This document shows, one piece after another, positions 1 through 51,009 of a DNA stretch of 64,000 nucleotides. The notes beneath the pieces were generated by a model. That model worked only from the letters and a program-made list of their open reading frames with translations, ran no database searches and was not told where the DNA came from. Within the stretch, counting starts at the first letter, position 1; each line of letters begins with the position of its first letter. Source of the stretch: Escherichia coli (GTDB lineage: Bacteria; Pseudomonadota; Gammaproteobacteria; Enterobacterales; Enterobacteriaceae); the NCBI RefSeq assembly GCF_030013595.1, contig NZ_CP122768.1; one strand, 5' to 3'. The translations under genes were made by a program, and so were the position numbers.

Positions 1-115
1 TGTTCGGTTGCTGCAGTCATACACTCCTGCATTGTCCTGTGAACACTGTCTGCAATATCAACTGGCTCTCCGGAAACAAGAAAAACTGTCAGAACAAGCG
101 CAAATGCTGAATTCA
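1..115 (-). CDS. N-terminal part of a small secreted/membrane protein (YdfD-like by operon position); start at 115, continues beyond window start
   Basis: Reverse strand reads MNSAFALVLTVFLVSGEPVDIADSVHRTMQECMTAATE from an ATG overlapping the dicB stop (ATGA); identity inferred from remembered dicB-ydfD order. Confidence 0.45.
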
Positions 116-301
116 TTGTGTACATCCTTTTGGCATCAGACGTAAACGAGCCAGCATTGAAACAATGCATATTTTATTTAATAGCTCCCGTTCTTGTTTT
201 CTCTTGTTAATGGCATCTTCAGTAAATACAGGGTTACTGATAGTGACACCAATTTCAAAACAACCTTCAGACGTATTAACGTTTGGTAATAACGTTTTCA
301 T
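113..301 (-). CDS. dicB: Cell division inhibitor DicB (62 aa)
   Basis: Internal Met of the 113..406 ORF gives MKTLLPNVNTSEGCFEIGVTISNPVFTEDAINKRKQERELLNKICIVSMLARLRLMPKGCTQ, matching remembered DicB; lies downstream of DicF as expected. Confidence 0.8.
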   Translation of the reverse strand: MKTLLPNVNTSEGCFEIGVTISNPVFTEDAINKRKQERELLNKICIVSMLARLRLMPKGCTQ

Positions 302-470
302 TATCGCGTCCTCAACAATGAATTTTGTGATGCAGTGCCTGGTGCCTCCAGGTGACGTTAACCAGTTAACAATTAACGCCGGATACAGAGAATCCACCCA
401 TAACACTGTTTTTGGTTTTAACTGTTCCGCGTGCGCTTAGCCGCATTCACCGCATCACAAAATTCACTTT

Positions 471-528
471 AAAAACGGCGGCAGAGCAGTCACGGAGTAA
501 AACTGATACCGCCAAACGTCACCAGAAA
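471..528 (-). ncRNA. dicF: DicF small regulatory RNA
   Basis: Reverse complement of 471..528 is UUUCUGGUGACGUUUGGCGGUAUCAGUUUUACUCCGUGACUGCUCUGCCGCCGUUUUU, matching remembered DicF; GC stem plus U-run at 3' end; located between early ORFs and dicB. Confidence 0.75.
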
Positions 529-803
529 ATTGATAACAGAGGGCGTTGCAGCGGGGTTGTCACTTAAGCGTATGGTCAACCTGACAACTCGGTGTCCTCA
601 ACGGGGAAGGAATAACCCCGCCATACTTACCGCCGCGCCATTTCGCGGGTTGCCACAACCGGAAGCGCACGGTCGAATTAAATTTAACGACACCGTACAG
701 TGAGACGAACTTCGCCGTGCGCTTTCGTGTTGTGTGCCTGCTTTTAACCACGTCAGGCGAGGTGGTATCCTTCTTATCCCGAATAACCAAGAAGGAAATC
801 TAT

Positions 804-1004
804 ATGACTAAAGAAGAATTTGTCTCTTATATTTTTGATAAAAAGGTTGAAATGTATGCCGCTACTTACGGGTCCTGTAATCCTCTGAATAAACCAGAGG
901 GGAAAGATGATTTCGACAAAATTTACCGCTTCTTGGAGGACCGCTATATCAAAAGGTTAGAGGACGCAGGGATCAAATCCCCAGTGAAGTCACCATTGTC
1001 CTGA
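804..1004 (+). CDS. Hypothetical 66-aa protein, opposite orientation to the dicB operon
   Basis: ATG at 804 preceded by AAGGAA Shine-Dalgarno; product MTKEEFVSYIFDKKVEMYAATYGSCNPLNKPEGKDDFDKIYRFLEDRYIKRLEDAGIKSPVKSPLS; no homolog recognised. Confidence 0.3.
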   Translation: MTKEEFVSYIFDKKVEMYAATYGSCNPLNKPEGKDDFDKIYRFLEDRYIKRLEDAGIKSPVKSPLS

Positions 1005-1338
1005 GAACTTGCAGGACGTCATGATCGTAACTTCCATCCAAACCGCGACGGCAAATTGCTTCTCGTATTACCGGAAGCAGTTCGCTGGAAATCTCGGTGC
1101 ATATTTCACCTGATAATACGCCTGGCTCAAGTGAGAATATTGGTGAACTTACGGTCTTGGTCTCGACAGTTTCAGAGTCAGTGCCAACATTATAAAGCTC
1201 AACGAAAGCGGTCTTGATTTTCCGGGCCAGATCTTTTGCTGGCTCGCTTGCAATATCTTTCCCGATTTCTCGCAGCACAGAATGCAATGTATGAGCTGCT
1301 GTTTTCTGTACATCAGACGGTAAATCTTTAAATTCCAT
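973..1338 (-). CDS. Hypothetical prophage early-operon protein (YdfB/YdfC position)
   Basis: 125-aa ORF (MEFKDLPSDVQK... from second Met) in the leftward operon downstream of the ydfA-like ORF; start 1338 or 1350. Confidence 0.5.
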   Translation of the reverse strand: MEFKDLPSDVQKTAAHTLHSVLREIGKDIASEPAKDLARKIKTAFVELYNVGTDSETVETKTVSSPIFSLEPGVLSGEICTEISSELLPVIREAICRRGLDGSYDHDVLQVLRTMVTSLGI

Positions 1339-1349
1339 CGTCAGCCTCA

Positions 1350-1502
1350 TCAGTCAGTGTTTCTGGCTAACCAGCAACGCGCGCCAGATTCGGTTTTAAA
1401 CGTTTTGCTTTTGGTATACGTCATCGCGGTGAACGTGCCGTCCTGGTTGGGGAACACGCCACATACCAGAGATTCGCTGTTGCCAAGATCGATAGTATCC
1501 AT
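1350..1502 (-). CDS. Small protein YdfA-like (50 aa)
   Basis: Internal Met of ORF 1350..1556 gives MDTIDLGNSESLVCGVFPNQDGTFTAMTYTKSKTFKTESGARCWLARNTD; first gene of the operon leftward of dicA. Confidence 0.5.
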   Translation of the reverse strand: MDTIDLGNSESLVCGVFPNQDGTFTAMTYTKSKTFKTESGARCWLARNTD

Positions 1503-1582
1503 GCTGACCTCATTTCCCCTTAACGCCGGGGTAGCGGAACTGTTTGCTGAGAACACCGTGCGGTGTCTTGATGGAAAGTAAT

Positions 1583-1633
1583 TTAGAATAACCTAACATA
1601 AGAGGCAAGTGTTTTTTGTTAGATTAGTCTAAC
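1583..1633. promoter_or_regulatory. Two palindromic operator-like sites (TTAG-N6-CTAA; GTTAGA-N4-TCTAAC) in the dicB-operon promoter region
   Basis: TTAGAATAACCTAA at 1583..1596 and GTTAGATTAGTCTAAC at 1618..1633, between dicA stop and the leftward operon start. Confidence 0.5.
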
Positions 1634-1670
1634 AAAAAGAGTGGGCGCAACTAATCACTTGAAAAGAATG

Positions 1671-2078
1671 TTATTTTATTGATTTATTTTTACGCGCTTT
1701 AAGCATTTCTTCGAAGAGTTTGTTGAAGTTTTCTACTCTTGCGCGCATTTCAGACAGCAAGGCTTCCTGCTCGGAAGATGGAAGAGCATCGAATAATTCG
1801 ATCAATTCTTTGTGGTTGGGAGTTAGCTCTGTTTCCACATGAAGTTCTTGTGCCGGCACTGGTGCCTTGTCTTCGTCACCAAACATTAGCCATGTAGGTG
1901 AGCACTTCAGAGCATCCGCTAAAGCAAACAATCGTTTTCCGACTGGCTGGGTTTCGTCTCTTTCCCATTGTGAAATTGTGACGTGAGCAACCCCAGCGAG
2001 GCGCGCAGCTTCTCGTTGTGTTAAGCGTAATTCTTTTCGTCGCGCCAGAACTCGCTGGCCTAGGGTTCTTGTATCCAT
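1671..2078 (-). CDS. dicA: Repressor DicA (HTH, XRE family, 135 aa)
   Basis: Full-length similarity to remembered DicA (..TISQWERDETQPVGKRLFALADALKCSPTWLMFGDEDK.. ..MRARVENFNKLFEEMLKARKN..); divergent from a Cro-like gene. Confidence 0.85.
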   Translation of the reverse strand: MDTRTLGQRVLARRKELRLTQREAARLAGVAHVTISQWERDETQPVGKRLFALADALKCSPTWLMFGDEDKAPVPAQELHVETELTPNHKELIELFDALPSSEQEALLSEMRARVENFNKLFEEMLKARKNKSIK

Positions 2079-2080
2079 AG

Positions 2081-2144
2081 TTAGGTAATTCTAATTTTTC
2101 TTGACTTAGGTATCCCGCGCACAATAATGTTAGAAAAGTCTAAC
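2081..2144. promoter_or_regulatory. Divergent dicA/dicC promoter-operator region
   Basis: Palindromes TTAGGTAATTCTAA (2081..2094) and GTTAGAAAAGTCTAAC (2129..2144); candidate rightward promoter TTGACT (2101..2106), 17-bp spacer, ATAATG (2124..2129). Confidence 0.55.
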
Positions 2145-2158
2145 AATAGGAGGCTTTG

Positions 2159-2386
2159 ATGCTTAAAGCTGACGCAATTACTTTTTTTGGCAGCAAAACA
2201 AAGCTTGCCAATGCCGCAGGAGTGAGACTGGCAAGTGTTGCTGCTTGGGGGATACTGGTTCCTGAAGGTCGCGCGATGCGTCTACAGGAGGCATCTGGCG
2301 GGGAGCTTCAGTATGATCCCAAAGTTTATGACGAATATCGTAAGACGAAGCGGGCGGGGCGGTTGAACAATGAAAATCACTCCTGA
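2159..2386 (+). CDS. dicC: Cro-like regulator DicC
   Basis: ATG 6 nt after AGGAGG; 75 aa (MLKADAITFFGSKTKLANAAGVRLASVAAWG...); divergent from dicA. Confidence 0.7.
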   Translation: MLKADAITFFGSKTKLANAAGVRLASVAAWGILVPEGRAMRLQEASGGELQYDPKVYDEYRKTKRAGRLNNENHS

Positions 2387-2891
2387 ACAGGCTCGTGAGG
2401 CTCTGGATGCCTGGATATGTCGACCAGGAATGACACAGGAGCAGGCGACGATATTAATCACTGAAGCATTCTGGGCTTTGAAAGAGCGCCCGAACATCGA
2501 TGTTCAGCGTGTCACAGATGAAGGTGGCGCGGTTGATCAGCGAGCGCTTGGCGTTAATCGAGTGAAGATATTCGAACGCTGGAAGGCTATCGACACTAGG
2601 GATAAGCGTGAAAAGTTCACGGCGCTAGTGCCTGCAATTATGGAGGCTATCCGGATTAATGATTTCAGGTTGTATCGTGAAATTAGTGACGGAAAAAGCA
2701 TCACGTACATGATCGCCGGGTTAAACAAAGAATATGGCGATGTGGTGGAGTCCGGACTGCTTTTTGCTGATCCTGCCGTAGTGGATCGTGAAACTGACGA
2801 ACTTATAGAAAAAGCAATTGCTTTCAAACTTGCGTATCGACTGCAATACCAACAAAAAGCTGGATGGAATTATGAGCCTTCTTTTTGCTGA
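2370..2891 (+). CDS. YdaT-like prophage regulatory protein (CII-position protein)
   Basis: 173-aa ORF directly after the cro-like gene, overlapping its stop; resembles the YdaT family from memory. Confidence 0.55.
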   Translation: MKITPEQAREALDAWICRPGMTQEQATILITEAFWALKERPNIDVQRVTDEGGAVDQRALGVNRVKIFERWKAIDTRDKREKFTALVPAIMEAIRINDFRLYREISDGKSITYMIAGLNKEYGDVVESGLLFADPAVVDRETDELIEKAIAFKLAYRLQYQQKAGWNYEPSFC

Positions 2892-3837
2892 ACGCCCACT
2901 GGTTATAAACACACAGCTTGCGATGAAGATTGGCTTAAATGAAGCCATTGTGTTGCAGCAGTTGCATTACTGGTTGAGAGATACCAATTCCGGCATGGAA
3001 TGTGATGGTGTTCGCTGGATTTACAACACAACGGAACAATGGCTGGAACAGTTCCCATTCTGGCCAGAGTCAACGTTAAAGCGCGCGTTTGCAAGTCTGA
3101 AAACGCTGGGGCTTTTGCGTTGTGAAAAGCTCAATAAATCAAAGCGCGATATGACCAATTTCTACACGATCAACTATGGGAGCGAGCTTTTAGATGGTGG
3201 CAAATTGAACGAATCCATCGGTTCAAAATGCGCCGCTCCATCAGGTCAAAATGACACGATGGAAGAGGTCAAAATGAAACGCTCCATTGGTTCAAAACGA
3301 CCCAATGTCATCGGGTCAAAATGGCCTGATGATCTTACAGAGAATACAACAGAGATTACTACAGAGAATAAAAACACTTTTCGTCCGGAAGCTTCGCAAC
3401 CGGACCCGCAGACCGCTGAACAGGATTTTTTAACCCGGAACCCCGACGCGGTTGTGTTTAGTGCGAAAAAACGCCAGTGGGGTAGCAGGGAGGATTTGGC
3501 GTGTGCGCAGTGGATTTGGGGGCGGATCGTGAACCTTTACGAACAGGCTGCCAGCGACGATGGAGAGATCATGCGACCAAAAGAGCCTAACTGGACAGCC
3601 TGGGCCAATGACGTGCGCACAATGCGGATGCTGGATGGCAGAAGCCACAGACAAATTTGCGAAATGTTTGGTCGGGTACAGCGAGATCCATTCTGGGTAA
3701 AAAACATCATGAGCCCGTCAAAACTCCGCGAAAAATGGGACGAACTGGTCATCCGCTTGGGACGTTCACCTGTACAGCGTTGTGTGAATCATATTTCTGA
3801 ACCGGATACAGAAATTCCGCCTGGTTTCAGGGGATAA
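2872..3837 (+). CDS. Replication initiation protein, lambda O-like
   Basis: Position after cro/cII-like genes; contains iteron-like DNA repeats internally (translated as repeated IGSK motifs), as in lambda O/ori; start at MSLLFAERP. Confidence 0.65.
   Translation: MSLLFAERPLVINTQLAMKIGLNEAIVLQQLHYWLRDTNSGMECDGVRWIYNTTEQWLEQFPFWPESTLKRAFASLKTLGLLRCEKLNKSKRDMTNFYTINYGSELLDGGKLNESIGSKCAAPSGQNDTMEEVKMKRSIGSKRPNVIGSKWPDDLTENTTEITTENKNTFRPEASQPDPQTAEQDFLTRNPDAVVFSAKKRQWGSREDLACAQWIWGRIVNLYEQAASDDGEIMRPKEPNWTAWANDVRTMRMLDGRSHRQICEMFGRVQRDPFWVKNIMSPSKLREKWDELVIRLGRSPVQRCVNHISEPDTEIPPGFRG
3219..3324 (+). repeat. Putative replication origin iterons (about five copies of GGTCAAAATG-like repeat)
   Basis: cGGTTCAAAATG 3219..3230, GGTCAAAATG 3244..3253 and 3267..3276, GGTTCAAAACG 3289..3299, GGGTCAAAATGG 3314..3324, inside the O-like gene. 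Confidence 0.6.
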
Positions 3838-38102: not shown

Positions 38103-41100
38103 GTGAATATGGCAGTAAAGATTTCAGGTGTACTGAAAGACGGCACAGGAAAACCGGTACAGAACTGCACAATCCAGCTGAAAGCAAAACGTAACAGCAC
38201 CACGGTGGTGGTGAACACGCTGGCCTCAGAAAATCCGGATGAAGCCGGGCGTTACAGCATGGACGTTGAGTACGGTCAGTACAGCGTTATTCTGTTGGTG
38301 GAAGGATTCCCGCCGTCACATGCCGGGACCATCACCGTGTATGAAGACTCCCGACCCGGTACGCTGAATGATTTTCTCGGTGCCATGACGGAGGATGATG
38401 CCCGGCCAGAGGCACTGCGCCGTTTTGAGCTGATGGTGGAAGAGGTGGCGCGTAACGCGTCCGCGGTGGCACAGAACACGGCAGCCGCGAAGAAGTCAGC
38501 CGGCGATGCCGGCACATCAGCCCGTGAGGCGGCAACCCATGCGACTGATGCTGCAGGCTCAGCACGCGCAGCCAGCACGTCAGCCGGACAGGCCGCGTCG
38601 TCGGCTCAGTCAGCGTCTTCCAGCGCAGGAACGGCATCAACAAAGGCCAGTGAAGCATCGAAAAGTGCTGCTGCTGCAGAGTCCTCAAAAAGCGCGGCAG
38701 CTACCAGTGCCAGTGCCGCGAAAACGTCAGAAACGAATGCCGCAGCGTCACAACAATCAGCAGCCACTTCTGCATCCACCGCGACCACGAAAGCGTCAGA
38801 AGCTGCCACCTCAGCCCGGGATGCGGCGGCCTCAAAAGAGGCAGCGAAATCATCAGAAACGAACGCATCCTCGAGCGCCAGTAGCGCAACTTCCTCGGCA
38901 ACGGCGGCAGGAAATTCCGCGAAGGCGGCAAAAACGTCCGAGACGAACGCTAAGTCTTCTGAGACGGCAGCGGGACAGAGCGCCTCAGCTGCGGCAGGCT
39001 CAAAAACAGCGGCTGCATCATCTGCCAGCGCCGCGTCAACAAGTGCCGGGCAGGCCTCAGCCAGTGCCACCGCCGCCGGAAAATCGGCAGAAAGCGCCGC
39101 ATCATCCGCTTCAACAGCCACAACGAAGGCTGGCGAAGCCACTGAACAGGCCAGCGCAGCAGCGAGTTCTGCTTCCGCAGCGAAGACATCCGAAACGAAC
39201 GCGAAAGCGTCGGAAACCAGCGCAGAATCCTCAAAAACGGCTGCCGCATCGTCAGCCAGTTCGGCGGCGTCATCGGCATCATCGGCGTCTGCTTCAAAAG
39301 ATGAGGCGACCAGACAGGCGTCAGCAGCGAAGGGCAGCGCCACGACAGCATCCACGAAGGCGACAGAGGCAGCTGGTAGTGCGACAGCGGCAGCTCAGAG
39401 CAAAAGTACGTCGGAATCTGCAGCAACGCGTGCCGAGACAGCAGCAAAACGGGCAGAGGATATTGCATCTGCCGTGGCGCTTGAGGATGCGAGCACGACG
39501 AAAAAGGGGATAGTACAGCTCAGCAGTGCGACCAACAGTACGTCTGAAACGCTGGCGGCAACGCCAAAGGCAGTAAAATCAGCCTATGACAATGCAGAGA
39601 AACGTCTGCAGAAAGACCAGAACGGCGCTGATATACCCGATAAGGGACGCTTCCTGAACAACATTAACGCGGTCAGTAAAACAGACTTTGCTGATAAGCG
39701 TGGTATGCGTTATGTGCGGGTTAACGCTCCTGCAGGTGCAACATCTGGAAAATATTACCCTGTTGTTGTTATGCGTTCTGCTGGCTCAGTAAGCGAACTG
39801 GCATCAAGGGTCATTATCACCACGGCAACGCGAACCGCAGGCGATCCGATGAATAACTGCGAGTTTAACGGATTTGTTATGCCTGGTGGCTGGACTGACA
39901 GGGGGCGTTATGCTTATGGAATGTTCTGGCAATATCAAAACAATGAACGAGCCATCCACTCAATAATGATGAGTAATAAGGGCGATGATTTGCGCTCTGT
40001 GTTCTATGTTGATGGCGCTGCTTTCCCTGTTTTTGCGTTTATCGAAGATGGCCTGTCAATATCCGCACCTGGTGCTGATCTCGTTGTTAATGATACGACC
40101 TATAAGTTTGGGGCAACAAATCCAGCGACTGAATGTATCGCGGCGGACGTTATCCTTGATTTTAAGAGTGGGCGTGGTTTTTATGAGTCTCATTCGTTAA
40201 TCGTTAACGATAATTTGTCGTGCAAAAAACTTTTTGCCACAGACGAAATTGTAGCGCGTGGTGGTAATCAGATTCGAATGATAGGTGGGGAGTATGGTGC
40301 ATTATGGCGTAATGATGGCGCTAAAACTTACCTGCTGCTTACCAATCAAGGTGATGTTTATGGTGGCTGGAATACATTAAGACCGTTTGCTATTGATAAC
40401 GCAACCGGCGAACTGGTTATTGGAACCAAACTGTCCGCAAGTCTGAACGGTAATGCATTAACAGCAACAAAGCTGCAAACGCCAAGACGGGTTTCTGGTG
40501 TTGAGTTTGATGGTTCCAGAGATATTACTTTAACCGCCGCGCATGTGGCTGCTTTTGCCAGAAGGGCAACGGATACATATGCCGATGCGGATGGTGGCGT
40601 TCCCTGGAATGCCGAATCAGGTGCTTACAATGTCACCCGCTCTGGCGACAGCTATATTCTGGTTAACTTCTATACCGGAGTCGGAAGTTGCCGGACCCTG
40701 CAGATGAAGGCGCATTACAGAAATGGTGGTCTGTTCTACCGTTCTTCAAGAGACGGTTATGGTTTTGAGGAAGACTGGGCAGAAGTTTATACCTCGAAAA
40801 ATCTTCCACCAGAAAGCTACCCAGTCGGCGCACCAATCCCGTGGCCATCAGATACCGTTCCGTCTGGTTATGCCCTGATGCAGGGGCAGACTTTTGACAA
40901 ATCTGCTTACCCGAAACTTGCAGCCGCTTATCCGTCAGGCGTGATCCCTGATATGCGTGGCTGGACGATTAAGGGCAAACCTGCCAGTGGTCGGGCCGTA
41001 TTGTCTCAGGAACAGGACGGCATTAAATCGCATACCCACAGCGCCAGCGCATCCAGTACGGATTTGGGGACGAAAACCACATCGTCGTTTGATTACGGCA

Positions 41101-41459
41101 CTAAATCCACGAATAACACCGGGGCGCATACCCATAGTGTTAGCGGTACGGCTGCTTCAGCCGGTGCACATACCCATTCGATGACATTTGTTTCAGGTGG
41201 TTCCAGTGGTGCTCCGGGAAGTGGAGCATCTGATTATTCTAAATACAGTGTTAACACTTCTTCTGCAGGCGCTCATACGCACTCTGTATCGGGTACTGCT
41301 GCAAGCGCAGGTGCACACGCACATACTGTGGGTATTGGTGCTCATACGCACTCCGTTGCGATTGGTTCACATGGACACACCATCACCGTTAACGCTGCTG
41401 GTAACGCGGAAAACACCGTCAAAAACATCGCATTTAACTATATTGTGAGGCTTGCATAA
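38103..41459 (+). CDS. stf: Side tail fibre protein Stf (long form, 1118 aa)
   Basis: Conserved N-terminus, long Ala/Ser-rich repeat region, C-terminal tip with repeated GAHTHS motifs; followed by tfa. Confidence 0.9.
38650..39450 (+). repeat. Degenerate tandem coding repeats inside stf (unit encodes A-K-T/S-S-E-T-N-A)
   Basis: Repeated gcgaaaacgtcagaaacgaatgc-like units; produces long spurious ORFs in other frames and on the opposite strand. Confidence 0.6.
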
Positions 41460-42034
41460 TGGCATTCAGAATGAGTGAACAACCACGGACCATAAAAATT
41501 TATAATCTGCTGGCCGGAACTAATGAATTTATTGGTGAAGGTGATGCATATATTCCGCCTCATACAGGTCTGCCAGCAAACAGTACCGATATTGCACCGC
41601 CAGATATTCCGGCTGGCTTCGTGGCTGTTTTCAACAGTGATGAGTCATCGTGGCATCTCGTTGAAGATCATCGGGGTAAAATGGTTTATGACGTGGCTTC
41701 CGGCGACGCGTTATTTATTTCTGAACTCGGTCCGTTACCGGAAAATGTTACCTGGTTATCGCCGGAAGGGGAGTTTCAGAAGTGGAACGGTACAGTCTGG
41801 GTGAAGGATACGGAAGCAGAAAAACTGTTCCGGATCCGGGAGGCGGAAGAAACAAAAAACAGCCTGATGCAGGTAGCCAGTGAGCATATAGCGCCACTTC
41901 AGGATGCTGTAGATCTGGAAATCGCAACGGAGGAAGAAACCTCATTGCTGGAAGCCTGGAAAAAGTATCGGGTGTTGCTGAACCGTGTTGATACATCAAC
42001 TGCACAGGATATTGAATGGCCAGCACTGCCGTAG
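41459..42034 (+). CDS. tfa: Tail fibre assembly protein Tfa
   Basis: 191 aa [42 protein letters not shown]...; start overlaps stf stop. Confidence 0.85.
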
Positions 42035-42131
42035 GGTAAAACATATAAATTCTATAATTAGATGTATCTTTCCATTTACGGCAAGGAAGGGGGCTTGGAA
42101 GACGTAAAGCATCTCACACCGAGATTATTTT

Positions 42132-42722
42132 TTATATGTCAGGTGTCTGAAGTTTTGCTTTGGCTCTTAAAATGGTTTGCCGCGAGGTTTTGAATTCCCG
42201 GGCAATGGCACTTATACTTACACCTGACTTAATTCGTTCGAATACCACCTGTTTCTGTTCTTCATTTAACACAGGTGGTCGACCAAAACGTTTCCCTGCG
42301 CCGCGGGCTCTTACTATCCCGGAATGAGTGCGTTCAAGTAAAAGGTCTCGTTCAAATTCAGCGACTGCTGAAATTACGTGCATCATCATTTTTCCTGTTG
42401 GACTGGTCAGGTCAATGCCCCCCAATGCTAAGCAATGCACTCTGATACCTGTTTCGGTCAGTTGTTCCACTGTTTTCCTGATATCCATTGCATTACAACC
42501 AAGGCGATCCAGTTTTGTCACAATCAATTGATCACCACATTTCAGGCGAGCAAGCAACCGGTTAAAACCAGGACGCTCACTGGTTGCTGCTGAGCCGCTA
42601 ATGTGTTCTTCGATTATTTGCTGAGGTTTGATTTTAAAACCTGCACTTTCGATTTCCCGGCGTTGATTTTCGGTGGTCTGATCCAGCGTTGATATCCGAC
42701 AGTAAGCAAAAATTCGAGACAT
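42132..42722 (-). CDS. pinQ: Serine recombinase / DNA invertase PinQ-like
   Basis: 196 aa [29 protein letters not shown]...; catalytic Ser region plus C-terminal HTH. Confidence 0.85.
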
Positions 42723-43038
42723 AGTGAGACTCTATACGAAATTGGTGTTCATATCATAATGCATCTCAGAAAATAATTTTGATTATTTTTGTGCATATTT
42801 GTATGTACACGTTCGAAAATAAACGAATGCGTATGCAACCCCGTAATTTTGGTGAGACCCAAAATCGATTTTGTGAAAAATGGCTTTAACTCGGTTTGTT
42901 TTTCGAGTTCCGGGCAGACTCAAGGAAGAAGAATAGTGTTGCGTGTTATTTTAACCAGATTTCAATTTGTTTGGTCGTGGAAAAGTGGAGCAAAATGTTG
43001 TTAAAGTGGAAAAATGATAAAAAAGTAAGTTTGTTATA

Positions 43039-43272
43039 TTACATTTTACCATTTAAATTTTGGTTGTCTTTAAGAACTGATATCGCTGTTTGTAATAATT
43101 CTTTGTTATCCAGCCATGATTTTTTCTTTATGTTTCCTTCAATGTAATCAAGCAATGTTCTGGTATTGATAGGTCTTCCCTGTTTTGCTACTTCCACTAC
43201 AGCATCCCCTAGGATAATTCTTACTTCAGGAAGCTGCGCAGGGAACCACTTTAGGGTGTCTTTTGATTTCAT
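43039..43272 (-). CDS. ydfK: YdfK-like small prophage protein (77 aa)
   Basis: MKSKDTLKWFPAQLPEVRIILGDAVVEVAKQGRPINTRTLLDYIEG...; AAGGAA before ATG. Confidence 0.7.
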   Translation of the reverse strand: MKSKDTLKWFPAQLPEVRIILGDAVVEVAKQGRPINTRTLLDYIEGNIKKKSWLDNKELLQTAISVLKDNQNLNGKM

Positions 43273-44056
43273 GAAGATATTCCTTAAAATATTATTGATT
43301 TTCATTGCGATATTGTATGTCTGATTCAGGATATGTTGACTTATACATCGGTTTTGTCTGGGTTATTGGATATGCCAATCCCTAATTTTATTAGGGCATG
43401 ACTAAAAATGCTGAATATGATAAGGAGAGAAGTGATTATCAGTATGCTGTTCATATAGCCTCGAATTAGTAATGTGTTATATATGATATAGTTGACAATT
43501 TTTATCTTGGGTGTTCTTAAAGTTCGTAGATAAACATTGTCGTTTCAGGTATACAGGAATGCTAACAGGTGGCGGCAAAAATCAGGCGGTTTATGGCGCA
43601 ATCTGAAGTGGCAACTGCAAACTATCTTATGCAGAGACTCTACACGGATTGGGTTTAAAAGTATACATAGATAACAATTTTTATCTGAAGAAGAAAAATA
43701 TCAAGGTGATATAGCCTATATGCCTTTGATGCGGAGGAATGAATGTGATGGGAGTGATGTATCTGAATAGTTGAAAAACCGCAGACACGCCTTATGCAAG
43801 AACGTGCTGCGGTTGGCTGGTAAATTTTTCGATAGTGCGAGTATTGAATGATTTCCAGCCGTTATTGATTTTACGCGTAAATCCATGAAAAAACTACTTA
43901 TCTGTTGGGGAGTTTTTTGGGGCATATATGGGACAGAAATAGGCCCCAGATAGACACTGAGATCGAACTTAGGATGCTTTTAAAAAAATGCAACTATCTG
44001 AAAAAACCTAGAAAACGCCAAGGAAACCACAGGATGGGAAAAAACACCTGTGAATT

Positions 44057-45340
44057 ATGGATTTCCAGTTATATTCGCTCGGCGCAGCGTTAGTGTTTCA
44101 TGAAATATTTTTTCCTGAATCATCAACGGCAATGGCGTTAATTCTGGCAATGGGAACCTACGGTGCAGGTTATGTGGCGCGTATTGTCGGAGCATTTATT
44201 TTCGGCAAAATGGGCGACAGAATCGGGCGTAAAAAAGTACTCTTTATTACCATCACCATGATGGGGATCTGTACCACCTTAATTGGTGTGTTACCGACCT
44301 ATGCACAGATTGGTGTTTTTGCACCCATCTTGCTGGTGACGCTGCGTATTATTCAGGGATTGGGTGCAGGTGCGGAAATTTCCGGTGCCGGTACGATGCT
44401 GGCGGAATATGCGCCAAAAGGTAAGCGCGGAATTATCTCCTCATTTGTGGCTATGGGGACTAACTGCGGAACCTTGAGCGCAACGGCAATCTGGGCCTTT
44501 ATGTTCTTCATTCTCAGTAAAGAGGAACTGCTTGCGTGGGGATGGCGTATACCGTTCCTGGCGAGCGTTGTCGTGATGGTCTTTGCTATCTGGTTGCGTA
44601 TGAATCTGAAAGAAAGCCCGGTCTTTGAGAAGGTTAACGACAGCAACCAACCGACAGCAAAACCTGCACCTGCTGGTAGCATGTTCCAGAGCAAATCCTT
44701 CTGGCTGGCAACAGGGCTGCGTTTTGGTCAGGCTGGTAACTCCGGTTTAATTCAGACTTTCCTTGCAGGCTATTTAGTGCAGACGTTATTGTTTAACAAA
44801 GCAATTCCAACAGATGCATTGATGATCAGTTCGATTCTCGGCTTTATGACCATTCCGTTCCTTGGTTGGTTATCCGATAAAATTGGTCGCCGGATCCCGT
44901 ATATTATTATGAATACCTCTGCGATTGTGCTGGCGTGGCCAATGCTTTCTATCATCGTAGATAAAAGCTATGCCCCGAGCACCATTATGGTTGCACTGAT
45001 TGTGATTCATAACTGTGCGGTGCTGGGATTATTTGCTCTGGAAAACATTACCATGGCAGAAATGTTCGGCTGTAAAAACCGCTTTACCCGGATGGCTATT
45101 TCTAAAGAAATTGGTGGTCTTATCGCTTCCGGTTTTGGTCCTATCCTAGCGGGTATTTTCTGCACCATGACGGAATCCTGGTATCCGATCGCCATTATGA
45201 TCATGGCATATTCAGTGATTGGTTTAATCTCTGCGCTGAAAATGCCAGAAGTGAAAGACCGTGATTTAAGTGCACTGGAAGATGCCGCGGAAGATCAACC
45301 GCGTGTTGTAACAGCTGCGCAACCTTCAAGAAGTCTGTAA
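44057..45340 (+). pseudogene. ydfJ: MFS transporter YdfJ, 5'-truncated by prophage integration
   Basis: ORF begins MDFQLYSLGAALVFHEIFFPESS, which corresponds to the middle of TM1 in related full-length MFS proteins (about 30 N-terminal residues missing); in-frame stop directly upstream. Confidence 0.65.
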
Positions 45341-45429
45341 ATCCTCCATCCCTTCTCTTACCGGAGAGGGGATTTTTTATTCATATAACAAAACATGCAG
45401 CTTGCCATATTTAAATTTAAGGAATTGTT

Positions 45430-46890
45430 ATGGGAAATAATTTGTTATCAGCAAAAGCGACACTCCCTGTTTATGATCGTAATAACCTGGCCCCAAGAAT
45501 TGTTCATTTAGGCTTTGGTGCATTTCACCGTGCGCATCAGGGCGTGTATGCCGATATTCTTGCTACAAAACATTTCAGTGATTGGGGATATTATGAGGTC
45601 AATTTAATCGGCGGCGAACAGCAAATTGCCGATTTACAACAGCAAGATAATCTTTATACCGTTGCGGAAATGTCGGCCGATGCGTGGACGGCTCGCGTCG
45701 TTGGCGTCGTTAAAAAAGCCTTGCACGTACAGATTGATGGCTTAGAAACCGTGTTGGCTGCGATGTGTGAACCGCAAATCGCGATTGTCTCTCTGACAAT
45801 CACCGAAAAAGGGTATTTCCACTCTCCGGCGACCGGACAGTTAATGCTCGATCACCCGATGGTCGTTGCCGACGTACAAAATCCCCACCAGCCGAAAACT
45901 GCAACAGGGGTGATTGTCGAGGCGCTGGCTCGCCGTAAAGCGGCAGGACTTCCCGCATTTACCGTCATGTCATGTGACAACATGCCAGAAAACGGTCATG
46001 TTATGCGCGACGTTGTCACTTCCTACGCGCAAGCTGTTGATGTAAAACTGGCACAATGGATCGAAGAAAACGTGACTTTCCCATCAACAATGGTGGACCG
46101 TATTGTGCCCGCAGTGACGGAGGATACGCTGGCGAAAATCGAACAACTTACCGGTGTGCGCGATCCTGCTGGCGTTGCCTGTGAACCTTTCCGCCAGTGG
46201 GTAATAGAAGATAACTTTGTTGCCGGACGTCCGGAATGGGAAAAAGCGGGAGCCGAACTGGTTAGTGATGTGCTGCCTTATGAAGAGATGAAGTTGCGCA
46301 TGCTCAACGGCAGTCATTCATTCCTGGCGTATCTGGGGTATCTTGCCGGATATCAGCACATTAATGACTGCATGGAAGATGAACATTATCGTCATGCAGC
46401 GTATGCCTTGATGTTGCAGGAACAAGCGCCGACGTTGAAAGTGCAGGGTGTTGATTTGCAAGATTACGCTAACCGATTAATTGAACGCTATAGCAACCCG
46501 GCGCTACGTCATCGAACCTGGCAGATTGCGATGGATGGCAGCCAGAAATTGCCACAGCGGATGTTGGATTCTGTTCGCTGGCTTCTGGCGCATGACAGCA
46601 AGTTCGATCTGCTGGCGCTGGGCGTCGCAGGTTGGATGCGTTATGTCGGTGGTGTTGATGAACAGGGAAATCCGATAGAAATCAGTGACCCACTGTTACC
46701 TGTTATTCAGAAGGCTGTACAAAGTAGTGCCGAAGGGAAAGCGCGCGTCCAGTCATTGCTGGCGATTAAGGCGATCTTTGGTGATGATTTGCCAGACAAT
46801 AGCTTGTTTACTGCAAAAGTGACGGAAGCGTACTTGTCTTTATTAGCGCATGGTGCGAAAGCGACCGTGGCGAAATATTCCGTGAAGTAA
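45430..46890 (+). CDS. ydfI: Mannitol-dehydrogenase-family oxidoreductase YdfI
   Basis: 486 aa with N-terminal Rossmann motif [12 protein letters not shown]. Confidence 0.85.
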
Positions 46891-46898
46891 AAAAAGCA

Positions 46899-46919
46899 AT
46901 GCCGCCATCGGCGGCATTC
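46899..46919. terminator. Bidirectional terminator hairpin between ydfI and ydfZ
   Basis: AATGCCGCC-ATC-GGCGGCATT. Confidence 0.5.
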
Positions 46920-46925
46920 ACACGC

Positions 46926-47129
46926 TTAGTTCATGCCGAGACGAATCAGGTCCAGAGGTGCCAGTTTCTCTTCACAACCTTCAACAACTACGGTTTTTCC
47001 GCGGCGGATTTGCTCAGCGGTCAGACCTTCAGTATCAATCGACAGGATCTTGCCAGTGTGACCGGTGCCGCTAACCATAACACGGCTGCCAGTGGTGATT
47101 GCGTTACGGTTACGATCGTAGGTCGTCAT
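46926..47129 (-). CDS. ydfZ: Small protein YdfZ (67 aa)
   Basis: [45 protein letters not shown]... Confidence 0.8.
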
Positions 47130-47305
47130 AGGTGTTTTCTCCTTTCTGATTTACAGTCGAAGCCCACGTAACGGGCGCAATATAAATACTCCTGTCGAGT
47201 GAAATATTTTTTGTTTTTGATCAAGCTCACATCTTTTTTGATGCATGCATGAGCCATAAGGCGGGGGGAGAGACTCTCACCCCGAATGGGATGAGAGGAA
47301 ATGAA

Positions 47306-47992
47306 TTACTCTTCGCTAAACCAGTCGCTGTTTTCCTGGCGGATCTGGCGCACGGATTCGCTGATTTCCTGCAAATGTTGCGTCATTGCACGTTCTACCG
47401 CATCGCCATCACGTTTTTGCAGGGCAGAGAAAATATCAAGATGCTGGCGTAACAGCATTTCTGGTGGAGAAACGTGGTCGAAACTCATATAGCGCACGCG
47501 ATCAACGGTCGCTTTCAGGTTCTCAATGGTATCCCACGCCAGTTGACAGTCGGCAATCTGCGTCAGGAGTTGATGGAAGTTGTCATCAAGTTCAAAAAAA
47601 TCATCCAGTTGCTTGCGCTCAATGGCAATGCGTTGCTGGTGAAGATTTTGTTCCAGTTGGTAGCACTGGCTTTCGGTAATCATGCTCGCCGCCCGACGCG
47701 CCACCGCGCACTCAATGGCCTGACGGATAAAACTGCCGTTGCGCACCTGGGCCATGGAAATTTTGTTGACGTAGCTGCCACGCTGCGGACGAATTTGAAT
47801 CAGGCCGTTTTCCGCCAGTTTAATAAAGGCTTCACGAACCGGCTGGCGTGACACATTGAAACGAACAGAAACTTCTTTTTCCGACAACGGTGTGCCTGGT
47901 GCAATCAGGCAATGGACAATGTCGCGACGAAGAATACGATAAATCTGCTGATTGACAGGCTGTGTGGGATTAAGTTGCGTTTCGACGGTCAT
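47306..47992 (-). CDS. ydfH: GntR/FadR-family transcriptional regulator YdfH
   Basis: 228 aa with N-terminal GntR HTH and FCD-like C-terminal domain. Confidence 0.8.
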
Positions 47993-48080
47993 TCGTTCTT
48001 GCTTGTGAGTGAGTTAACTGCATGAGTCTACCACTTTTTTGTGACAAGCAATAACCCGGCAGTTACGCCGGGTATAAAAA

Positions 48081-48827
48081 TTACTGACGGTGGACATTCA
48101 GTCCGGCATAGCTTTGGGTAACCGGCATCATTTCCAGGGTATTGATATTAACGTGAGCAGGCAGCGTTGATACCCACCAGACGGCTTCGCTGACATCTTC
48201 TGGCGTCAATGCAACGGTATTTTGATAGGTTTTTTCCGCTTTACCGTCATCGCCTTTAAAGCGGACATTGGAAAACTCGGTGCCACCCACCAGACCCGGT
48301 TCGATGTCGGTGACGCGCACCGCCGTACCATGCAGGTCCGTACGCAGATTCAGGCTAAACTGACGAACAAACGCTTTCGTCGCACCGTAAACGTTACCAC
48401 CGGCATACGGCCAGCTACCTGCCGTTGAGCCAATGTTAATAATATGACCATGATTACGTTCAACCATACCCGGTAAGACGGCGCGCGTCATATATACCAG
48501 GCCTTTATTGTTGGTATCAATCATCGTTTCCCAGTCTTCAACGCTGGCTTTATGCGCAGGCTCCATGCCCAACGCCAGGCCGGCATTATTTACCAGGATA
48601 TCAATATTGCTCCACTCGGCAGGAAGCGATGCCAGCATCTCTTCAATAGCGGCGCGGTTGCGAACGTCCAGTTGGGCGATATAAAGATTATCTCCCAGTT
48701 CGTCTTTTAACTCCTGCAACCGCTCCTGGCGACGGCCAGTGGCGATAACTTTATGCCCTTGTTGAATAAAACGACGAGTAATGCATTCACCAAAACCTGC
48801 CGTTGCTCCAGTTACTAAAACGATCAT
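48081..48827 (-). CDS. ydfG: Short-chain dehydrogenase (NADP-dependent 3-hydroxy acid dehydrogenase) YdfG
   Basis: MIVLVTGATAGFGECITRRF... with TGATAGFG Rossmann motif and YxxxK. Confidence 0.85.
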   Translation of the reverse strand: MIVLVTGATAGFGECITRRFIQQGHKVIATGRRQERLQELKDELGDNLYIAQLDVRNRAAIEEMLASLPAEWSNIDILVNNAGLALGMEPAHKASVEDWETMIDTNNKGLVYMTRAVLPGMVERNHGHIINIGSTAGSWPYAGGNVYGATKAFVRQFSLNLRTDLHGTAVRVTDIEPGLVGGTEFSNVRFKGDDGKAEKTYQNTVALTPEDVSEAVWWVSTLPAHVNINTLEMMPVTQSYAGLNVHRQ

Positions 48828-48963
48828 CTCACTGTTCCTCAACGCTTTTGTGTGTCAATAACATAGCACGTGATGCTTAAGAGCGGGTAATACTGGTTTG
48901 CAAGATTGCACTCCGTTATCAGTAAGCCTACGCTATGGAACACCTCGCGTTCAGGAGAAGAAA

Positions 48964-51009
48964 ATGACAACAATGAATCCTTTCCTTGTGCAAAGCACAC
49001 TGCCGTATCTGGCTCCCCATTTTGATCAAATTGCCAATCATCACTATCGCCCGGCATTCGATGAGGGAATGCAGCAAAAGCGGGCAGAAATTGCTGCCAT
49101 CGCGCTTAACCCGCAAACACCTGATTTCAACAATACTATTCTGGCACTGGAACAAAGCGGAGAATTACTTACCCGCGTTACCAGCGTCTTTTTTGCGATG
49201 ACTGCGGCGCATACTAATGATGAATTACAGCGTCTTGATGAACAGTTTTCCGCTGAACTGGCGGAACTGGCTAATGATATCTATCTGAACGGTGAATTAT
49301 TCGCGCGGGTAGATGCTGTCTGGCAACGCCGTGAATCCCTGGGACTTGATAGTGAATCCATCCGCCTGGTGGAGGTCATTCATCAACGTTTTGTCCTTGC
49401 CGGAGCCAAACTTGCACAAGCTGATAAAGCAAAATTAAAAGTCCTGAATACAGAAGCTGCGACCCTGACCAGCCAGTTTAACCAGCGGTTACTGGCAGCA
49501 AATAAATCCGGCGGTCTGGTTGTGAACGATTTCGCGCAGCTGGCAGGAATGAGTGAGCAAGAGATTGCGCTGGCGGCAGAGGCGGCTCGCGAGAAAGGTC
49601 TGGATAACAAATGGCTGATTCCGTTGCTGAATACCACCCAGCAACCAGCGCTTGCTGAACTGCGCGATCGCGCGACGCGTGAAAAACTGTTCACTGCGGG
49701 CTGGACGCGAGCGGAAAAAAATGATGCCAATGATACCCGCGCTATCATTCAACGTCTGGTGGAGATCCGCGCGCAGCAGGCGAAACTGCTTGGTTTCCCT
49801 CATTATGCCGCATGGAAAATCGCCGATCAGATGGCAAAAACGCCAGAAGCAGCACTCAACTTTATGCGGGAAATTGTTCCAGCGGCGCGTCAACGTGCGA
49901 GCGATGAATTAGCCTCCATACAGGCGGTTATCGATAAGCAGCAGGGCGGGTTTAGCGCGCAGCCGTGGGACTGGGCATTTTATGCCGAGCAGGTAAGACG
50001 TGAGAAATTCGATCTCGATGAATCGCAGCTCAAGCCATATTTTGAATTAAACACGGTGTTGAATGAAGGTGTATTCTGGACCGCGAATCAGCTCTTCGGT
50101 ATTAAGTTTGTCGAACGTTTTGATATTCCTGTCTACCATCCTGACGTTCGTGTATGGGAAATTTTTGATCATAATGGCGTGGGGCTGGCGTTATTTTACG
50201 GTGATTTCTTCGCCCGTGATTCAAAAAGCGGCGGTGCATGGATGGGCAATTTTGTTGAGCAATCAACGCTTAATGAAACGCATCCGGTAATTTATAACGT
50301 CTGCAATTATCAGAAACCCGCTGCCGGTGAGCCTGCGTTGTTACTCTGGGATGATGTCATAACCTTATTCCATGAATTTGGTCATACGTTGCACGGCCTC
50401 TTTGCCCGCCAGCGTTATGCCACACTTTCCGGCACCAACACGCCGCGTGATTTTGTCGAATTTCCGTCGCAAATCAACGAACACTGGGCAACGCATCCGC
50501 AGGTATTCGCTCGCTACGCCCGGCATTATCAGAGCGGGGCAGCAATGCCTGACGAACTGCAACAGAAAATGCGTAATGCCAGCCTGTTCAATAAAGGGTA
50601 TGAGATGAGCGAACTGCTTAGCGCCGCACTTCTCGATATGCGCTGGCATTGCCTGGAAGAAAACGAAGCAATGCAGGATGTCGATGATTTCGAATTGCGG
50701 GCGCTGGTGGCAGAAAATATGGATCTTCCCGCTATACCGCCACGCTATCGCAGCAGTTATTTCGCCCATATTTTTGGTGGCGGATATGCCGCAGGTTATT
50801 ACGCTTATCTGTGGACGCAAATGTTGGCCGATGATGGTTACCAGTGGTTTGTTGAGCAGGGCGGATTAACGCGTGAAAATGGGCGGCGTTTTCGCGAGGC
50901 GATTCTTTCCAGAGGTAACAGCGAAGATCTGGAACGCCTGTATCGACAATGGCGCGGTAAGGCACCTCAGATTATGCCGATGCTGCAACATCGTGGCTTG
51001 AACGTATAA
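48964..51009 (+). CDS. dcp: Peptidyl-dipeptidase Dcp (M3 metallopeptidase)
   Basis: 681 aa from MTTMNPFLVQS... after AGGAGAAG; HEFGH zinc motif. Confidence 0.9.
   Translation: MTTMNPFLVQSTLPYLAPHFDQIANHHYRPAFDEGMQQKRAEIAAIALNPQTPDFNNTILALEQSGELLTRVTSVFFAMTAAHTNDELQRLDEQFSAELAELANDIYLNGELFARVDAVWQRRESLGLDSESIRLVEVIHQRFVLAGAKLAQADKAKLKVLNTEAATLTSQFNQRLLAANKSGGLVVNDFAQLAGMSEQEIALAAEAAREKGLDNKWLIPLLNTTQQPALAELRDRATREKLFTAGWTRAEKNDANDTRAIIQRLVEIRAQQAKLLGFPHYAAWKIADQMAKTPEAALNFMREIVPAARQRASDELASIQAVIDKQQGGFSAQPWDWAFYAEQVRREKFDLDESQLKPYFELNTVLNEGVFWTANQLFGIKFVERFDIPVYHPDVRVWEIFDHNGVGLALFYGDFFARDSKSGGAWMGNFVEQSTLNETHPVIYNVCNYQKPAAGEPALLLWDDVITLFHEFGHTLHGLFARQRYATLSGTNTPRDFVEFPSQINEHWATHPQVFARYARHYQSGAAMPDELQQKMRNASLFNKGYEMSELLSAALLDMRWHCLEENEAMQDVDDFELRALVAENMDLPAIPPRYRSSYFAHIFGGGYAAGYYAYLWTQMLADDGYQWFVEQGGLTRENGRRFREAILSRGNSEDLERLYRQWRGKAPQIMPMLQHRGLNV

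Follow-up and report, generated by a model that had tools for sequence, protein, structure and literature searches.

In the 64-kb stretch of Escherichia coli DNA analysed here (the window), lambdoid phage genes run directly into a transporter gene, ydfJ, that appears to lack its beginning. This locus raises the question of where the phage DNA ends, how it came to be joined to ydfJ, and whether what remains of ydfJ is still a gene. The first-pass annotation had placed the right junction of a prophage inside ydfJ. We concluded, with a probability of about 0.97, that positions 43306..44075 form the right-hand terminus of a lambdoid, Qin-like prophage that passes through attR into truncated host ydfJ. 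The ydfJ attR junction is correct, and it is already known, common and well documented.

The attR junction inside ydfJ

To locate the junction, four att sites were aligned: attB from an intact ydfJ (L001), attP from the free phages HannyBb and mEp460_ev081 (L005 and L006), attL from the closest genome, HCP5S3_I2 (L004), and attR from the window. The aligned sequences were GCGCTTGAATTTATGGATTTCCAGTTATATTC for attB, CACCTGTGAATTATGGATTTCAAGAGTCATAC for attP, GCGCTTGAATTTATGGATTTCAAGAGTCATAC for attL and CACCTGTGAATTATGGATTTCCAGTTATATTC for attR. The change from phage to host DNA took place within TTATGGATTTC, a short core of 11 bp that was identical in all four sites, including attP and attB, and that contains the ATG of ydfJ codon 29 (Table 1). 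Alignment with an uninterrupted ydfJ, which had been proposed as the way to define the core, therefore gave an 11-bp identity embedded in a longer, imperfect att sequence. The latter was TGAATTTATGGATTTCCAG (19 bp) in attB and TGAATTATGGATTTCAAG in attP, and its length was 18 bp in attP and attR. An in-frame TGA at 44051..44053 came from the phage side, and it is in frame with Met29 because of the one-base length difference (TT versus TTT). The attP, attB, attL and attR of ydfJ prophages were determined earlier, and the "18- or 19-bp att sequence" given for them (Nakamura et al. 2021, PMC8112680, S7 Fig legend) agrees with the 18 and 19 bp found here. The same legend records a PCR across attP that revealed, in another strain, the excision of a ydfJ prophage.

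Table 1. Positions of the junction and of neighbouring features in the window.
Feature	Position	Strand	Remarks
ydfK, RefSeq "cold shock protein"	43039..43305	-	last sizeable phage gene before the junction
ynfT, 37-aa small protein of the YnaM/YnfT family	43341..43454	-	Pfam PF23676 (E=6.5e-28), NCBIfam NF041477
Distal mosaic module	43779..43880	+	hairpin, then repeat-bearing segment; not confined to ydfJ phages
Proximal P arm of attP	43917..44054	+	from alignment; common to window/K-12, F8111 and O157/Stx2a types
Tandem pair TGGGGCAtataTGGGACA (TGGGGCA-tata-TGGGACA, 11-bp register)	43918..43935	+	-137/-126 from the core
Extended imperfect att sequence TGAATTATGGATTTCCAG, 18 bp	44051..44068	+	
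attR common core TTATGGATTTC	44055..44065	+	11 bp identical in attB, attP, attL and attR
ydfJ', 5'-truncated MHS-family MFS transporter	44057..45340	+	427 of 455 codons, from native Met29

The 750 bp before the junction had been described as AT-rich phage DNA, and both parts of this description held. The GC content was 0.32-0.41 over 42850..44050 versus 0.44-0.51 within the ydfJ ORF, and the arm to the left of the junction (43600..44068) was 97.5-98.7% identical to the free phage genomes HannyBb, Tritos, PhiR42_1 and mEp460_ev081. These four phages carry the same arm, the core and a P' arm as a contiguous attP beside int-xis. They differ from the window to the right of the core, where the P' arm and int (CAAGAGTCATAC...) follow in place of ydfJ.

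The ORF begins with MDFQLYSLGA, two codons downstream of the TGA, as expected from the earlier description of an ORF that starts at DFQLY, in the middle of TM1, with an in-frame stop just upstream. The first hydrophobic stretch covers residues ~13-46, with Met29 in its middle. In strain LFB1-1-1R the locus is uninterrupted (rspA-rspB-ydfJ-ydfI) and collinear with the window only from 44051 on. YdfJ has 455 aa there, with 28 additional N-terminal residues, MTIEKHERSTKDLVKAAVSGWLGTALEF, followed by MDFQLY. Truncation had been called into doubt should full-length homologues start at the same residue, and they do not. The NCBIfam entry positions also moved, to 7 in the window ORF versus 1 in the intact protein for TIGR00883, 37 versus 12 for ShiA, and 40 versus 22 for ProP. 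The window ORF thus gave no full-length match to the MHS family (TC 2.A.1.6) profile including the N-terminal part of TM1, and YdfJ' is a truncated member of this family by descent. The prophage separates ydfJ' from the ydfJ promoter and codons 1-28. The site-specific insertion of Qin at ydfJ's 5' end, with loss of the promoter and of the 28 N-terminal codons, was described before (PMC6379469), and K-12 ydfJ (b4600) is annotated in RefSeq as a pseudogene, "incomplete; missing N-terminus".

The other end of the prophage was absent from the 64-kb window: when the intact rspA..dcp locus was compared by blast, the only match was 44051..49395. The attL that the first-pass annotation had expected upstream was found in HCP5S3_I2 (NZ_CM149870.1), at L004:22356..22366, with the same core and flanked by rspB on one side and by int and xis on the other. 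There, ydfJ codons 1-31 continue into phage sequence and reach a stop after 42 codons. The integrase next to this reciprocal attL is intact (426 aa) and carries the domains Arm-DNA-bind_2 (PF12167) and Phage_integrase (PF00589). The HCP5S3_I2 prophage spans ~52 kb from attL to attR, with int and xis intact and IS insertions present. Window 42700..45400 was 100% identical to this genome, and the first 3 kb (1..3000) were 99.8% identical to sequence 5.7 kb to the right of its attL, which places attL ~5.7 kb to the left of window base 1. This distance is only approximate, because the left-end offset was shifted by 2,707 bp and the two sequences therefore differ by a 2.7-kb indel. Full collinearity was rejected from this offset and the 99.8% left-end identity. 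The source genome is thus a close relative whose prophage carries an indel, possibly an IS element. The prophage takes up at least 44 kb of the window and includes large head and tail ORFs.

The junction was then counted in 5,426 complete E. coli genomes. A 301-bp probe across intact attB was at least 80% covered in 2,010 of them, so that empty sites exist in related genomes, and the attR probe was present in 3,168 (~58% filled). A 2.7-kb probe (42700..45400) gave a match in 5,408 genomes and was at least 80% covered in 1,984, K-12 MG1655 among them; other genomes, such as LFB1-1-1R, matched from window 44051 onwards only.

Together these sites give the following course of events. A phage integrase of the tyrosine type, with a domain for arm binding at its N terminus, recombined attP (CACCTGTGAATTATGGATTTCAAGAGTCATAC) with attB (GCGCTTGAATTTATGGATTTCCAGTTATATTC), which lies in codons 26-32 of ydfJ. 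Strand exchange took place inside the shared TTATGGATTTC, with the crossover point presumably somewhere within its 11 bp. One product is attL, outside the window, with rspB, ydfJ codons 1-31 and then the int side. The other is attR at window 44055..44065, with the P arm and then ydfJ from Met29. On the phage side, the 750 bp consist of ynfT, an intergenic stretch, the distal mosaic module and ~140 bp of proximal P arm. On the host side, ydfJ has lost its promoter and 28 codons, including half of TM1, so that the remnant is a pseudogene and probably non-functional. The integrase, seen here by its domain content, is a putative catalyst of integration and excision at the ydfJ site.

The phage arm and candidate integrase sites

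The arm shared among ydfJ prophages starts at about 43917, and homology to O157-type prophages resumes exactly at GGGGCATATATGGGACA. Near its outer end lies the tandem pair TGGGGCAtataTGGGACA. In attP, the P' arm has a matching pair in the same orientation at +70/+81, and attL has one too. The pattern TGGGRCA-N4-TGGGRCA occurred once in the 64-kb window versus none in 100 shuffles. Two pairs were present in each free-phage attP (among them L005 3527..3544 and L006 3528..3545), one at attL (L004 22426..22443), located within int at its 3' end, and one in each attR examined, including those of K-12, F8111 and O157. No more pairs were found within 700 bp of the attP core. The motif recurs in each arm, well away from the core, and attB lacks it.

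Phage lambda has a heterobivalent tyrosine integrase that binds core-type and arm-type sites, and its attP geometry was used for comparison. The ydfJ phages resemble lambda in an integrase with arm-binding and catalytic domains, in a short core of identity, and in repeated arm motifs ~130 bp away on one side of the core and ~75 bp on the other. Unlike in lambda, the arm-binding domain is Arm-DNA-bind_2, with the other Pfam arm-binding families unmatched, the core and arm sequences are different, and the target lies inside a coding sequence that is inactivated by the insertion. Since the integrase has an Arm-DNA-bind_2 domain and the pairs are present on both arms, the pairs are candidate arm-type sites. 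We put the odds at about even that they are bound as such by the Qin/mEp460 integrase. No earlier description of these candidate sites was found in the literature.

Between the proximal arm and the phage genes lies the distal mosaic module, which opens with a hairpin, CCGCAGACACG...CGTGCTGCGG, at 43779..43812. In O157-type prophages and in phage 2H10, a dinI-like gene was seen between this module and the proximal arm (L007 1266..1508; L011 2782..3030). The window and K-12 lack this gene, which points to a mosaic breakpoint or a deletion at ~43880..43916.

Further to the left, ynfT belongs to a pin-ydfK-ynfT module common to Rac-type prophages, and the Rac-like match H29 spans 42700..43830. For ydfK there was no Pfam or NCBIfam family match. 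Three copies of ACAATTTTTATCT, two direct and one inverted, were noticed in the intergenic region upstream of ynfT/ydfK (43494..43507, 43528..43541 and 43674..43686). The first copy overlaps a perfect TTGACA hexamer, and the copies may serve to regulate the ydfK/ynfT unit. A scan of 42600..44400 against Rfam gave only a spurious miRNA match and a sub-threshold match to CssrB, a Shigella chromosome-encoded sRNA, at 43674..43811 on the + strand (29.8 bits versus a gathering threshold of 76, E=0.0011). The last part of this CssrB-like stretch is the hairpin CCGCAGACACG...CGTGCTGCGG, after which comes a T-rich run; the stretch may represent an sRNA carried by the prophage, or else a terminator. 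In a scan for promoters and terminators, sites were no more numerous than in shuffles. A short ORF across the junction (43905..44093), with no family match, is probably spurious.

The region 38103..42722 holds a tail-fibre ORF of 1,118 aa, whose very long central part is of low complexity and rich in Ala, Ser and Thr, followed by tfa and then by the oppositely oriented pin invertase gene. Inversion driven by PinQ in Qin is reported to block adsorption of phage T2 (PMC12529663).

The upstream repeat and alternative readings of the junction

A partial repeat of the junction sequence had been noted upstream of the junction. The repeat exists: the 9-mer GATTTCCAG occurs at 43850..43858 and 44060..44068, and with gaps it extends to TGAAT, a 4-nt gap, GATTTCCA, a 3-nt gap and GTTAT. 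Its link to the junction did not hold up. An exact match of at least 9 nt with the 36-bp core region was shared by 302 of 2,000 dinucleotide-preserving shuffles of 43306..44040, and 260 of the 2,000 reached the observed gapped score (p about 0.13-0.15), which is the level of chance. The upstream copy was already present in unintegrated phage genomes, so integration did not make the repeat. One might still read the segment at 43845..43865 as functional, either as an att site of secondary or relic nature (for instance an attB for tandem integration) or as an additional core-type Int site. An exact 9-mer flanked by TGAAT and TTAT would fit such a role, as would the "prophage-in-prophage" attB sites reported in E. 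coli lambdoid prophages and the clusters at ydfJ (PMC8112680). Against this, the shuffles equal the match, and in the F8111-type arm the 9-mer carries two substitutions and reads AATTTCAAG. The repeat-bearing segment also lies beside dinI in phage 2H10, whose integrase is a different one and which lacks the ydfJ core. In O157-type prophages the whole dinI-like gene separates the segment from the core and proximal arm, and none of the breakpoint classes sampled in the E. coli genome matches falls at 43845..43865. A functional role for the segment is thus very unlikely; the upstream repeat is a chance similarity, and the phage mosaic module that holds it has nothing to do with integration at ydfJ.

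The junction itself might have formed by a deletion or rearrangement that fused phage DNA to ydfJ, rather than by recombination of attP with attB. Secondary rearrangements do occur at this locus in some genomes: in strain TOE17 an IS5-family insertion lies 44 bp away from the core, and inversions between the ompW and ydfJ prophages have been reported (PMC8112680). The junction, however, matches to the base the core of free-phage attP and of empty attB, it has a reciprocal attL beside int-xis, and it recurs in thousands of genomes with several distinct phage types. A rearrangement origin is effectively refuted by the alignment of the four sites, and we retained integration at attB. For the host side of the same junction, it could be argued that ydfJ' is alive, with a promoter in the phage arm and a start at Met29 giving a shortened transporter of kept or altered function. 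Because the conserved core includes the native ATG of codon 29, an intact ORF of 427 codons remains in every lysogen, and ydfJ was differentially expressed after DicC induction in K-12 (PMC11430063), so the locus is transcribed under some conditions. The shortened protein has nevertheless lost half of TM1, conserved positions of the MHS-family profile included. The + strand of 43700..44056 showed no consensus promoter, no Shine-Dalgarno-like sequence was read by eye within ~15 nt of the ATG, and RefSeq treats the gene as a pseudogene. We therefore consider a working ydfJ' unlikely, though less so than the other two alternatives.

Qin and other prophages at ydfJ

Among known prophages, the closest counterpart of this junction is that of Qin (Kim) in K-12. 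Over window 42700..45396 the identity to MG1655 Qin was 98.4%, and Qin has the same attR junction, a ydfJ' ORF of the same length (1,284 nt) and the order pinQ-ydfK-ynfT-arm. The window thus shows the Qin-type order of tail fibre, tfa, pin, ydfK, ynfT, arm and ydfJ' at near-identity to K-12. In K-12, ~20 kb of Qin remain and its integrase is defective; the window prophage is much longer.

The ydfJ prophages of STEC strains (PPydfJ of O157:H7, O26, O145 and others) use the same ydfJ attB and core and have the same proximal P arm with the TGGGGCAtataTGGGACA pair, but their proximal arm is ~82-90% identical to that of the window. The O157-type prophage examined also carries a dinI-like gene and T3SS effector genes of the NleG family beside the arm, whereas the window has no dinI-like gene. 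ydfJ is a recognised integration locus of lambdoid prophages in pathogenic E. coli, with tandem prophage clusters at the locus (Nakamura et al. 2021, PMC8112680).

Stx2a_JNE phage records were considered as independent ydfJ integrants and dropped; no attL was found in the first 3 kb of one record. These records may be hybrids, and recombination between an Stx2a phage and a ydfJ prophage was reported in other strains (PMC8112680). In strain TOE17 (L009 1374..2550), the IS5-like element ISKpn26 was seen at the equivalent of window 44007, with 44 bp of phage arm left beside ydfJ' and narU near. The TOE17 locus is a heavily eroded prophage remnant or a rearrangement at the same attR.

Apart from getting the annotation right, the junction has little importance. 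Knowing the core to the base is useful for marking the prophage boundary and for planning an excision PCR, and the candidate arm sites provide a testable map of the attP of ydfJ phages. We found no literature linking ydfJ, Qin, rspA and gulonate. The prophage splits ydfJ and ydfI from rspA-rspB, which we take to form one sugar-acid catabolic cluster with them. Few lambdoid integration sites in E. coli are occupied as often as ydfJ, and the junction explains the pseudogene status of ydfJ in K-12 and in many other strains.
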